In this document: in pieces, positions 53,821 to 55,051 of the stretch
How the letters are laid out: each line of letters begins with the position of its first letter
Numbering within the stretch: position 1 is the stretch's first letter
Sequence record: MF158046
DNA: 64,000 nucleotides
DNA from: Shigella phage Sf23
Reading direction: 5' to 3' (one strand)
The notes under the pieces: generated by a model
What the model was told of the DNA's origin: nothing
Seen by the model: only the letters and a program-made list of their open reading frames with translations
Databases searched by the model: none
Program-made: the position numbers and the translations under genes

Positions 53821-53847
53821 AAAAGCCCCAACCTTTCGGCTAGGGCT
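53821..53847 (-). terminator. rho-independent terminator after internal-protein-like gene
   Basis: AGCCCTAGCCGAAAGGTTGGGGC followed by TTTTT; near-duplicate of the 54375..54402 copy. Confidence 0.65.
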
Positions 53848-53854
53848 AAGAATG

Positions 53855-54328
53855 TTATTTGATTTGTTTAGCAGACCAAATGCGGTCTTTAATAATTTTT
53901 TGAATGTCTTCAACATACTCAAGAGAGTGAGCATGTGGGTTATCTTTGAAACTATAAGCACGAGCTAGTTTTTGGCCTTCAGTTTTGATTACTAAAAGCT
54001 CTTTAAGGATAGCTTCATATTTGGAGATAATTCCTTTAACGATATTTTTCTCTTGTGTGACTTTAGGATCTGCTTTAGGAGCAGGTTTACCCGAAGCCTT
54101 TGCAAAAGCAGCGCCAGTAGCAACTAAACTTTTCCAGGCCATACTAACTGCATTTCCCGTAAATCCTTCCGCTTTCATGTCACGTGCGAACTGGAATCGT
54201 GATTCATCAGAAGCATCTTTGTAAGAATATTTACCCGCTGCAATGGCTGCTTTTGCGACAGCTTGAATTTCGGTGCTAGACGCTTCATTTAACACCGCTT
54301 CATTTAAAAATTGAGTATATGATTTCAT
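53855..54328 (-). CDS. internal-protein-like capsid protein with capsid targeting sequence (157 aa)
   Basis: N-terminus MKSYTQFLNE (CTS-like, L-x-E site); own late promoter (54365..54372) and flanking twin terminators. Confidence 0.6.
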   Translation of the reverse strand: MKSYTQFLNEAVLNEASSTEIQAVAKAAIAAGKYSYKDASDESRFQFARDMKAEGFTGNAVSMAWKSLVATGAAFAKASGKPAPKADPKVTQEKNIVKGIISKYEAILKELLVIKTEGQKLARAYSFKDNPHAHSLEYVEDIQKIIKDRIWSAKQIK

Positions 54329-54364
54329 CTTATTTCCTGTTTTAATTTGTAGATTTAATATACT

Positions 54365-54372
54365 TATTTATA
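54365..54372 (-). promoter_or_regulatory. late promoter for internal-protein-like gene 53855..54328
   Basis: rc is TATAAATA, about 36 nt upstream of the ATG, just downstream of a terminator hairpin. Confidence 0.6.
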
Positions 54373-54374
54373 CT

Positions 54375-54402
54375 AAAAAGCCCCAACCTTTCGGCTGGGG
54401 CT
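54375..54402 (-). terminator. rho-independent terminator closing the tRNA/stable RNA operon
   Basis: AGCCCCAGCCGAAAGGTTGGGGC followed by TTTTT. Confidence 0.65.
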
Positions 54403-54718
54403 AAGCCTTGCGGCAACCTTGTCGGGGTTCCACCTGCTAAGGCAAGTGTTTGTACGAAACGCCGGGATTCGAACCCGGTTATCAAGCAGTTGACGCTACT
54501 CAATATTTTTAAAAGGCCATATCTCGACCATATCCGAACGTTCCGTCAAAAACGCTACTCGGCTTACGGCAAAGATATTTCCTCGAATCGATAATTCGGT
54601 GCGCCGTTTCTGCTGTGATGTAAGGGGGCATTAACCGATCGTAAAGATTTGTTAATGCCAGTCCTTACCCAGGGAACATCAGTCCGACGACTTACCGGTA
54701 GCGACCCGGCTTCTTGTT
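54403..54718 (-). ncRNA. candidate small stable RNA region (T4 species 1/2 rnaC/rnaD-like)
   Basis: ~316 nt non-coding stretch between tRNA-Arg and a terminator, GC-richer than surroundings, with a tRNA-like T-arm CCGGGTTCGAATCCCGG (rc of 54460..54476). Ends not determined. Confidence 0.35.
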
Positions 54719-54794
54719 TGGTCGAGGCAGTAGGGATCGAACCTACGACCTAGGACTTAGAAGGTCCTTGCTCTTCCTTCTGAGCTATGCCTCG
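54719..54794 (-). tRNA. tRNA-Arg (anticodon UCU)
   Basis: Hand-folded cloverleaf: acceptor CGAGGCA/TGCCTCG, anticodon loop CTTCTAA, T-loop GGTTCGATCC, CCA encoded. Confidence 0.8.
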
Positions 54795-54976: not shown

Positions 54977-55051
54977 TGGTGGCCCTGGGTGGAATTGAAC
55001 CACCATCTGGCGATTATGAGTCGCTTGCTTGAACCTTCCAGCTACAGGGCC
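54977..55051 (-). tRNA. tRNA with CAU anticodon (Ile2/Met type; T4 tRNA-Ile position)
   Basis: Hand-folded: acceptor GGCCCTG/CAGGGCC, anticodon loop CTCATAA, T-loop GGTTCAATTCC, CCA encoded; 1 nt from tRNA-Thr. Confidence 0.75.

Follow-up and report, generated by a model that had tools for sequence, protein, structure and literature searches.

The end of the tRNA operon of Shigella phage Sf23 very probably carries the structured RNAs rnaD and rnaC of T4

What, if anything, is encoded between the last tRNA gene and the terminator of the tRNA operon of Shigella phage Sf23? The window analysed here, a stretch of 64,000 nucleotides from sequence record MF158046, belongs to a T4-like phage of the genus Tequatrovirus. 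It contains ten minus-strand tRNA genes, which ARAGORN and Rfam place from 55549 down to 54719 in the order Gln, Leu, Gly, Pro, Ser, Thr, Met(CAT), Tyr, Asn and Arg. A first-pass annotation had described the 316 nt that follow (54403-54718) as flanked by tRNA-Arg and the operon terminator, as devoid of a credible ORF, and as having about the right size for two small RNAs like the T4 species 1 and 2. The boundaries are borne out by the ARAGORN and Rfam call for tRNA-Arg and by the terminator hairpin (AGCCCCAGCCGAAAGGTTGGGGCT, followed by TTTTT, at 54402..54379 on the minus strand). The lack of a credible ORF also holds, as the only ORFs that reach into it are mechanical ones of 20-53 aa. Shigella phage ESh31 matches the interval with its flanks at 99.3% identity, and matches occur in 952 phage records, most of them from Tequatrovirus.

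The interval very probably represents this phage's copies of T4 rnaD and rnaC, two structured non-coding RNAs that form the tail of the tRNA operon and would be released from a polycistronic precursor (Table 1). This identification is based on homology with the T4 genes, on synteny, and on folds that are supported by covariation. The two small stable RNAs of T4 have been on record since the 1970s. rnaD and rnaC are thus already known genes, and their presence in Sf23 is not new; what the analysis adds are structural models, the ranges of the two families, and a set of annotation errors.

Table 1. Features of the end of the Sf23 tRNA operon, in the direction of transcription; positions are those of the window, and the helices and loops are predicted ones.
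Feature	Position	Strand	Basis
tRNA-Arg(UCU), last tRNA of the operon (context only)	54719..54794	-	ARAGORN; Rfam RF00005, 68.1 bits
rnaD homolog (T4 species 2 RNA), 120 nt	54598..54717	-	T4 rnaD alignment; covariance model R1
rnaD P1, 5' hairpin GCCGG-GUCGCUA-CCGGU	54694..54710	-	RNAalifold
rnaD P2, 5' strand GUCGUCG; pairs with CGGCG(C)AC	54685..54691	-	RNAalifold, model-fitted alignment
rnaD P3 5' strand, CCC bulge (54674..54672) and hypervariable P4 hairpin (54671..54616)	54616..54678	-	
rnaD P2, 3' strand CGGCGCAC	54599..54606	-	RNAalifold, model-fitted alignment
Spacer between rnaD and rnaC, 6 nt, GAAUUA (T4: AAAUUA)	54592..54597	-	alignment to T4
rnaC homolog (T4 species 1 RNA), 139 nt	54453..54591	-	T4 rnaC alignment
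rnaC acceptor-like stem, 5' strand, nt 2-8, CGAUUCG; pairs with nt 131-137	54584..54590	-	
rnaC junction stem (nt 9-11/76-78, 3 bp) and long interrupted hairpin, D-arm position	54514..54583	-	
rnaC A-rich single-stranded linker UUAAAAAU, nt 79-86	54506..54513	-	near-invariant alignment columns
rnaC 10-bp hairpin, nt 87-112, anticodon-arm position, 6-nt loop CGUCAA	54480..54505	-	
rnaC T-arm CCGGG-UUCGAAU-CCCGG, nt 114-130	54462..54478	-	
rnaC acceptor-like stem, 3' strand, nt 131-137, CGUUUCG; then tail UA (CAA in DNA)	54455..54461	-	
3' trailer, 49 nt, small hairpins CACUUGC-CUUA-GCAGGUG and GCC-GCAA-GGC	54404..54452	-	homolog comparison
Intrinsic terminator of the tRNA operon: 10-bp stem, GAAA loop, U run	54374..54402	-	

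The T4 reference genome (NC_000866) annotates two misc_RNAs right after tRNA-Arg, rnaD at 71053-71171 (119 nt) and rnaC at 70908-71046 (139 nt), and the window aligns with this stretch collinearly, without rearrangement. rnaC is identical to its T4 counterpart at 136 of 139 positions in a gap-free alignment (97.8%), and rnaD in 104 of 121 alignment columns (86%). The spacer (5/6) and the 49-nt trailer (46/49) are similarly close, whereas tRNA-Arg is only 53% identical, because T4 and Sf23 carry different alleles. In the comparison with T4, rnaC is therefore better conserved than the adjoining tRNA gene. The suspected likeness to the T4 pair of RNAs is thus one of direct homology, with a correction of the gene order, which is tRNA-Arg, then rnaD, then rnaC. 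As in T4, rnaD is located directly 3' of tRNA-Arg, the 3' end of which lies one base upstream, and 5' of rnaC. Also as in T4, rnaC is the last RNA gene of the operon, and is followed by the same trailer and an intrinsic terminator.

The two phages differ in several places. The three substitutions in rnaC all fall in predicted stems: two change U-A to U-G pairs in the 10-bp arm, and one is a U-to-C change in the long arm. The core of rnaD is identical (5' hairpin, GUCGUCGGACUGAUG...CCCUG, and AUCACAGCAGAAACGGCGCACC), whereas substitutions and indels set the apical hairpins apart. The base that follows the 3' end of rnaD is A in T4, so that CACCA is encoded, and G in Sf23, which gives CACCG. Upstream, Sf23 has ten tRNA genes and no segB, and T4 has eight tRNA genes and segB.

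For the fold of rnaC, homologs from Tequatrovirus, Mosigvirus, Karamvirus, Kanagawavirus, Winklervirus and Klebsiella phages were gathered from GenBank phages, IMG/VR and metagenomes. In the structure prediction, which had been suggested as a check, RNAalifold folds 23 distinct sequences into a four-way junction. According to this model, rnaC is a tRNA-shaped, cloverleaf-like molecule that is supported by covariation and is not a decoding tRNA. In the 23 sequences, 98.4% of the cells of the consensus structure are paired, and 25 of the 44 pairs show a compensatory change. None of 500 shuffles is as good, and pairing drops to 39-47% when the partners are slid against each other. With more genera and the loop-loop helix described below, 96% of the cells are paired and 26 of 49 pairs are compensatory. 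The window rnaC forms every pair of the family consensus, including those of the four-way junction and the T-arm, and has the complementary loops.

The long interrupted hairpin (nt 15-72), an arm of roughly 60 nt, has compensatory changes in 16 of its 21 pairs, and 7-8 of the 10 stem pairs of the 10-bp hairpin covary. The acceptor-like stem comprises 7 bp with an invariant tandem U.U (nt 5-6/133-134), and its pair 4-135 is A-U in Tequatrovirus-type (T4-type) sequences and G-C in other genera. An alternative fold with an internal acceptor helix (nt 46-53/131-138), on which the ARAGORN tRNA calls in Karamvirus homologs depend and to which a weak tRNA-Sec alignment also pointed, was rejected. This helix shows no compensatory change, is broken in up to 7 of the 23 sequences, and breaks exactly where the rival helix with the 5' end covaries. 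Most homologs, like the window sequence, have the 3' tail U-ACA, and the Klebsiella-phage group has U-CCA; there is no encoded CCA at the 3' end of rnaC in Sf23.

Two of the arms may also contact each other. The loop at the apex of the long arm, UUGACG (54549..54544), is the exact complement of the loop CGUCAA (54495..54490) in the 10-bp arm, and the complementarity extends no further than the loops themselves. Neither loop varies, while the stems that carry them do. The exception is found in the Klebsiella-phage homologs, where UUGGCG and CGCCAA represent a double change from A-U to G-C. All six pairs are formed in 18 of the 18 sequences counted. A kissing interaction between the two 6-nt loops is probable; it is not graded as proven, because there is only one independent compensatory event, in one lineage. 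The predicted pairing could equally be intramolecular or link two rnaC molecules.

The T-arm was the element that had attracted attention to the interval, as a perfect T-arm without a full cloverleaf. It is real and is part of rnaC, although the position given for it earlier (54460..54476) was off by 2 nt. The GGTTCRANTCC box occurs nine times in the window, against an expected 0.18; of these copies, eight belong to tRNA genes and the remaining one to the rnaC T-arm. Among homologs, the middle pair of the T-stem is G-C, U-A or A-U. The occurrence of three Watson-Crick forms argues that the hairpin is under selection and does not represent a chance match. With respect to the cloverleaf, the earlier description stands insofar as rnaC is not a decoding tRNA, but it needs to be revised in view of the covariation-supported cloverleaf-like junction. 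What rnaC shares with canonical tRNAs is a 7-bp acceptor stem adjoining a 5-bp T-stem with a T-loop, apart from the two conserved U.U mismatches. The T-arm directly adjoins the 3' strand of the acceptor stem, as in a tRNA, and the two helices would stack to form a 12-bp minihelix.

A second tertiary contact, similar to the G18.U55/G19-C56 elbow of tRNAs, is possible between the T-loop and nt 74-75, which are located on the 3' side of the internal loop adjoining the junction stem. These nucleotides are GG wherever the T-loop is UUCRANN, and CG in six sequences with the T-loop UGCAUNC. The CG is as predicted for an elbow contact if position 55 of the T-loop became G. The two groups differ also in the middle pair of the T-stem, but there are few independent events. 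The Kanagawavirus and Winklervirus homologs (UGCAUGC and UGCAUCC) have lost the T-loop consensus, and a strictly tRNA-like elbow is therefore not universal in rnaC.

Among known RNAs, rnaC most invites comparison with the tRNA-like domain of tmRNA and with YrlA RNA (RF02553). In these RNAs, as in rnaC, a 7-bp acceptor-like stem formed by the 5' and 3' ends adjoins a 5-bp T-stem, and the remaining molecule replaces the decoding part; the rnaC T-loop, UUCGAAU, also resembles that of these modules. Like them, rnaC, with its gene among tRNA genes, is presumably matured by tRNA enzymes. It differs from them in the absence of an encoded CCA in Sf23, in the tandem U.U of the acceptor stem, and in its body, which consists of two arms with complementary loops instead of the mRNA-like domain of tmRNA or the Ro-binding stem of YrlA. 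Moreover, rnaC has no Rfam match to either class at thresholds, but only partial matches of 10-16 bits on the T-arm. ARAGORN finds no tmRNA, and the Rfam tmRNA match amounts to 10 bits over 17 nt of the T-arm. The YrlA model has no match in the interval at E<=10, and its weak match in T4 is to tRNA genes, not to rnaC or rnaD.

rnaD has a different architecture. It is modelled as a rod, built from a 5' hairpin, a near-invariant terminal stem with an internal loop, a conserved CCC bulge, and an apical hairpin that is hypervariable. Among 26 distinct sequences, there is hardly any variation in the first 48 and the last 21 nt. The middle, of roughly 50 nt, differs in sequence and length between phages, and yet the pairing of the P4 hairpin is always kept. 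Compensatory changes are seen in all five pairs of P1 in the wider model-fitted alignment, and in three of the four pairs of P3, in which UGUU pairs with AGCA (54614..54611). The P2 stem is near-invariant, with one G-C to C-G exchange and four pairs that never vary. It leads into the internal loop GACUGA/GAAA. Two features persist throughout, the P2 core CGUC/GGCG and the CCCUG motif, the latter in nearly all homologs, with a few that read CUCUG. Overall, 95.7% of the cells are paired and 14 of 23 pairs are compensatory in the model-fitted alignment, where covariation is supportive but not independent, because model fitting favours the structure. A covariance model (R1) built from the 26 sequences, the kind of search proposed at the outset, scores the window rnaD with 138.7 bits (E 1.6e-37), the window sequence being itself part of the R1 seed alignment.

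On account of its CUGAUG...GAAAC, rnaD was also compared with the hammerhead ribozyme, which has the core CUGANGA / GAAA / NUH and three helices, and this reading was rejected. Stem I is absent, because only 3 nt separate the candidate GUC site from CUGAUG, A9 is replaced by U, and no hammerhead match is found by Rfam at E<=10 in the interval. A kink-turn-like reading of the internal loop (GACUGA/GAAA) was dropped as well; this loop is not conserved in the Karamvirus, Kanagawavirus and Jiaodavirus homologs.

How would the two RNAs be released? In T4, both belong to one primary transcript, with its start upstream of the tRNA cluster and its end behind the species I gene (PMC2330249). In Sf23, the trailer between rnaC and the terminator is conserved, and it is present also in phages where rnaC is absent; the two hairpins listed in Table 1 show G-C to A-U exchanges among homologs. 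In older studies of T4, an RNase III site was reportedly mapped to the region downstream of species 1 RNA. A stack of acceptor stem and T-arm, 12 bp in length, is the minimal shape that RNase P recognises, and a cut would therefore be expected at the 5' side of the acceptor-like stem of rnaC, within one nt of 54591. Apart from the shape of rnaC, this proposal draws on what the old T4 work reportedly found. The same cut would separate rnaC from rnaD and free the 3' side of the latter. 3' exonucleases could then trim rnaD and rnaC back to their terminal helices, and owing to this trimming to stems, both would accumulate as stable RNAs. Non-tRNA substrates of RNase P are known from E. coli and its phages, namely the 4.5S RNA precursor, the C4 RNA of P1 and P7, and the M3 RNA of phi80. 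As proposed for rnaC, they are small stable RNAs with ends that tRNA-processing enzymes set on an acceptor-like helix. In the minimum-energy fold of the whole precursor, P1 of rnaD pairs over a long range with the T-arm of rnaC. This pairing was discarded, in view of the internal covariation of each hairpin and the occurrence of each RNA alone.

Matches to rnaC are present in 742 GenBank phage records, 679 of them with at least 95% identity, and matches to rnaD in 733, with identities from 60% to 100%. Some of the records label the genes rnaC or rnaD. The range of rnaC comprises Tequatro-, Mosig-, Karam-, Kanagawa- and Winklervirus as well as Klebsiella phages. rnaD occurs also in Dhaka- and Jiaodavirus, and in one Vequintavirinae phage. 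With the R1 model, significant matches are found in the tRNA clusters of Karamvirus, a Citrobacter phage, Klebsiella phages, Kanagawavirus (E 1e-4 to 1e-6) and the Vequintavirinae phage W70. The Jiaodavirus locus reaches only E 0.15 with R1, and was picked by BLAST and by eye. No Rfam family covers rnaC or rnaD in the window or in T4, even at permissive thresholds, and the same applies to the Vequintavirinae, Karamvirus, Klebsiella-phage and Kanagawavirus homologs. Judged from these comparisons, rnaC and rnaD appear to represent two families of structured RNAs, widespread but uncurated, in the tRNA clusters of phages.

Each of the two RNAs can apparently occur without the other, which suggests independent gain and loss. 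In Dhakavirus and at a few other loci, rnaC is precisely absent, and CACCGAA joins the trailer ACACTTGCC directly. In Karamvirus, rnaC lies between tRNA-Trp and tRNA-Gly with no adjacent rnaD, and an rnaD-like RNA is located about 1 kb away, between tRNA-Asn and tRNA-Asp. The Vequintavirinae phage W70 has an rnaD-like RNA right after tRNA-Met (95 bits), and no rnaC match at that locus. In T2-like phages, a 351-nt ORF separates tRNA-Arg from rnaD. Outside phages, no similar sequence was found in 5,426 complete E. coli genomes. A structure-anchored pattern, run against one genome per bacterial or archaeal species, returned three chance matches, none with a T-arm or acceptor strand. A wider rnaC pattern scan of IMG/VR gave many chance matches in G+C-rich contigs, which were discarded by eye.

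The function of rnaC and rnaD is stated to be unknown, also for T4 (PMC3014915). In T4, RNAC has been probed by Northern blot, and RNAC and RNAD are both classed as late RNAs (PMC9697503). The sole mutation common to T4-like phage lines that evolved on a semi-permissive host is a single SNP in rnaD (PMC12685909). We tentatively suggest, with low confidence, that rnaC and rnaD are accessory and host-dependent, and that rnaC is a tRNA mimic that may bind or titrate a host or phage protein recognising the acceptor stem and T-arm. Accessory RNAs that interact with proteins would fit the high conservation of loops and bulges, the patchy presence, and the shared rnaD mutation. T4 deletions that remove the tRNA region reportedly grow on laboratory strains, and any function would therefore be conditional. 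The role of rnaC as a mimic or decoy, for which its shape, conservation and patchy distribution speak, is a tentative one. The tail U-ACA in the window, in place of N-CCA, and the loss of the T-loop consensus in Kanagawavirus and Winklervirus count against it. A more detailed version is doubtful: the loop in the anticodon position would be locked by the intramolecular kiss, the T-loop would be docked on the GG in the D-arm position, and the molecule, as decoy or adaptor, would engage a host factor or defence that recognises tRNAs by their acceptor/T-arm end.

The main rival explanation denies the two RNAs a function in trans, and appears possible but unlikely. According to it, they are cis-acting processing or stability modules, or relics of tRNA genes, at the 3' end of the operon; the structures give RNase P and other nucleases entry points and shield the tRNAs upstream, with the stable RNAs as by-products. 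It is true that rnaC and rnaD are always found inside or at the end of tRNA clusters, but the Karamvirus rnaC, between its two tRNAs, is not at the operon end. rnaC does carry the minihelix that RNase P needs, and yet loops and single strands that would be dispensable for processing do not vary between genera (UUGACG, CGUCAA, AAAAAU; in rnaD, the core including the CCC bulge). Either RNA may be missing in related phages, and 50 years have passed without a function being found (PMC3014915). Nevertheless, rnaC is 95-100% identical over about 680 records, compared with the 53% for the tRNA-Arg alleles of T4 and Sf23.

It is improbable that rnaC and rnaD are small RNAs that regulate host or phage mRNAs by base pairing, even though they are labelled 'small regulatory RNAs' in the literature, without evidence (PMC9697503, PMC12685909). 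Conserved unpaired stretches do exist, namely the rnaC linker UUAAAAAU and the CCC bulge of rnaD, but these are short, low-complexity sequences. There is no target on record (PMC3014915), nothing similar to the interval was found in the 5,426 E. coli genomes, and the combination of acceptor stem, T-arm and closed loops is unlike Hfq-type small RNAs.

That rnaC could be an unusual decoding tRNA or a pseudo-tRNA is very improbable. ARAGORN calls a tRNA-Phe or tRNA-Met of 95-96 nt in the 3' two-thirds of Karamvirus homologs, and one GenBank record labels an rnaC homolog as tRNA-Met, but the tool calls disagree on the anticodon. In the Sf23 interval (54403-54718), neither ARAGORN nor Rfam RF00005 at its gathering score calls a tRNA. 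The Rfam tRNA model has no match there even at E<=10, and the sole match within the tRNA clan at this threshold is a weak tRNA-Sec alignment (16 bits, E=1.8). Instead of a 7-nt anticodon loop on a 5-bp stem, rnaC has an arm of 10 bp with the 6-nt loop CGUCAA. This six-nucleotide loop, which occupies the anticodon position, is the complement of the loop of the long arm; with no free anticodon loop, rnaC cannot decode.

Next to no credence remains for the idea that the interval encodes small proteins of 53 and 40 aa: the ORFs exist (54342..54503(-) and 54509..54631(-)), have PHROG matches (phrog_28391, E 5e-38; phrog_24262, E 6e-33) and correspond to a 'hypothetical protein' annotated here in many GenBank records, but the 53-aa ORF has a TTG start inside rnaC and extends across the hairpins of the trailer, the terminator and a late-promoter box, the 40-aa ORF has its ATG in the hypervariable rnaD hairpin, where homologs show substitutions and indels, the variation among homologs keeps base pairs and not reading frames, and the T4 reference has RNA genes and no CDS in this place. 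The PHROG matches probably reflect the same automatic gene-calling error made many times over in strongly conserved DNA, from which two families of such ORFs have resulted. A small peptide in T4 rnaD (AUG AGA AAC ...) was also considered and dismissed; its AUG is absent in the window (ACAAGAAG...).

Many deposited genomes carry spurious ORFs or false tRNAs over rnaC and rnaD. One Rfam family for each of the two RNAs would correct such annotation errors.

For the Sf23 genome, the rnaD and rnaC genes are ordinary, and they are expected in any T4-like phage. The wider interest lies in the RNAs themselves: of the phage RNAs that lack an assigned function, species 1 and 2 are among those known longest. 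The covariation-supported folds, the spread over several genera, and the independent gain and loss offer handles for experiments. If the decoy or adaptor reading is true, rnaC and rnaD would be determinants of host range.

Many GenBank phage records carry the annotation 'hypothetical protein' across the region corresponding to 54342..54631, where two mechanically called open reading frames lie over rnaC and rnaD, the homologs of the T4 species 1 and species 2 RNAs (table). The protein families that these frames match, phrog_28391 and phrog_24262, probably originated in mis-called ORFs over RNA genes. The tRNA annotations of some rnaC homologs raise a related problem. In Karamvirus-type phages, the 3' two-thirds of the homolog are reported by ARAGORN as a 95-96-nt 'tRNA-Phe' or 'tRNA-Met' (loci L027, 646-741, and L028, 646-740), and the homolog in PQ824230 is labelled tRNA-Met in GenBank. 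The helix required by the tRNA-Phe and tRNA-Met calls is without covariation support, and these annotations are therefore likely false.

Features on and around the RNA genes of Sf23, and a conserved stretch in related phages
Feature	Coordinates	Strand	Remarks
53-aa mechanical ORF	54342..54503	-	spans rnaC, trailer and terminator; matches phrog_28391, E 5e-38
40-aa mechanical ORF	54509..54631	-	spans rnaD and rnaC; matches phrog_24262, E 6e-33
Terminator hairpin pair	54402..54379 and 53847..53824	-	AGCCCCAGCCGAAAGGTTGGGGCT and AGCCCTAGCCGAAAGGTTGGGGCT, almost the same sequence
T4 late-promoter box, TATAAATA	54365..54372	-	few bases past operon terminator, ahead of gene 53855..54328 (-)
Conserved hairpin-bearing stretch, ~130 nt	L004 430-565; L050 575-715; L051 575-718		Karamvirus and a Citrobacter phage

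The tRNA cluster of the window differs from that of T4 by additional Tyr and Asn tRNAs, and by the absence of the segB gene. The tRNA at 54977..55051 (-) was called Met(CAT), at the place where tRNA-Ile is annotated in T4. It is probably an isoleucine tRNA, presumably read as Met because its CAU anticodon is unmodified. Beyond the tRNA operon, a 157-aa gene is flanked on each side by one of the two near-identical terminator hairpins. The late-promoter box occurs in the whole window no more often than expected by chance.

When the entire precursor (54374..54718, minus strand) is folded to minimum energy, CCGGG of P1, the 5' hairpin of rnaD, pairs with CCCGG of the rnaC T-arm. Covariation supports separate local hairpins over this pairing, which may represent a transient structure of the precursor.

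In T2-like phages, a 351-nt ORF is inserted between tRNA-Arg and rnaD (L002, 1601-1951; L033, 102-452), with its stop codon within about 3 bases of the annotated rnaD start. In a Klebsiella phage (L054, 435-500), about 60 nt (AAGUGGUGG...CCCUGCCCACUU) separate tRNA-Met from the rnaC homolog and, judged by eye only, look like a miniature rnaD-like hairpin. The conserved non-coding stretch of the Karamvirus and Citrobacter phages, located between the rnaD-like element and tRNA-Asp, may be a further uncharacterised RNA.

The rnaD-like RNA of Escherichia phage W70 (L039, 696-796) is shorter, at about 100 nt, and shares the core of rnaD. It lies directly 3' of a tRNA-Met and scores 95 bits with the covariance model built from rnaD homologs. 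W70 belongs to the Vequintavirinae, a phage family not related to T4, which suggests that the rnaD-like element has spread horizontally along with tRNA genes.
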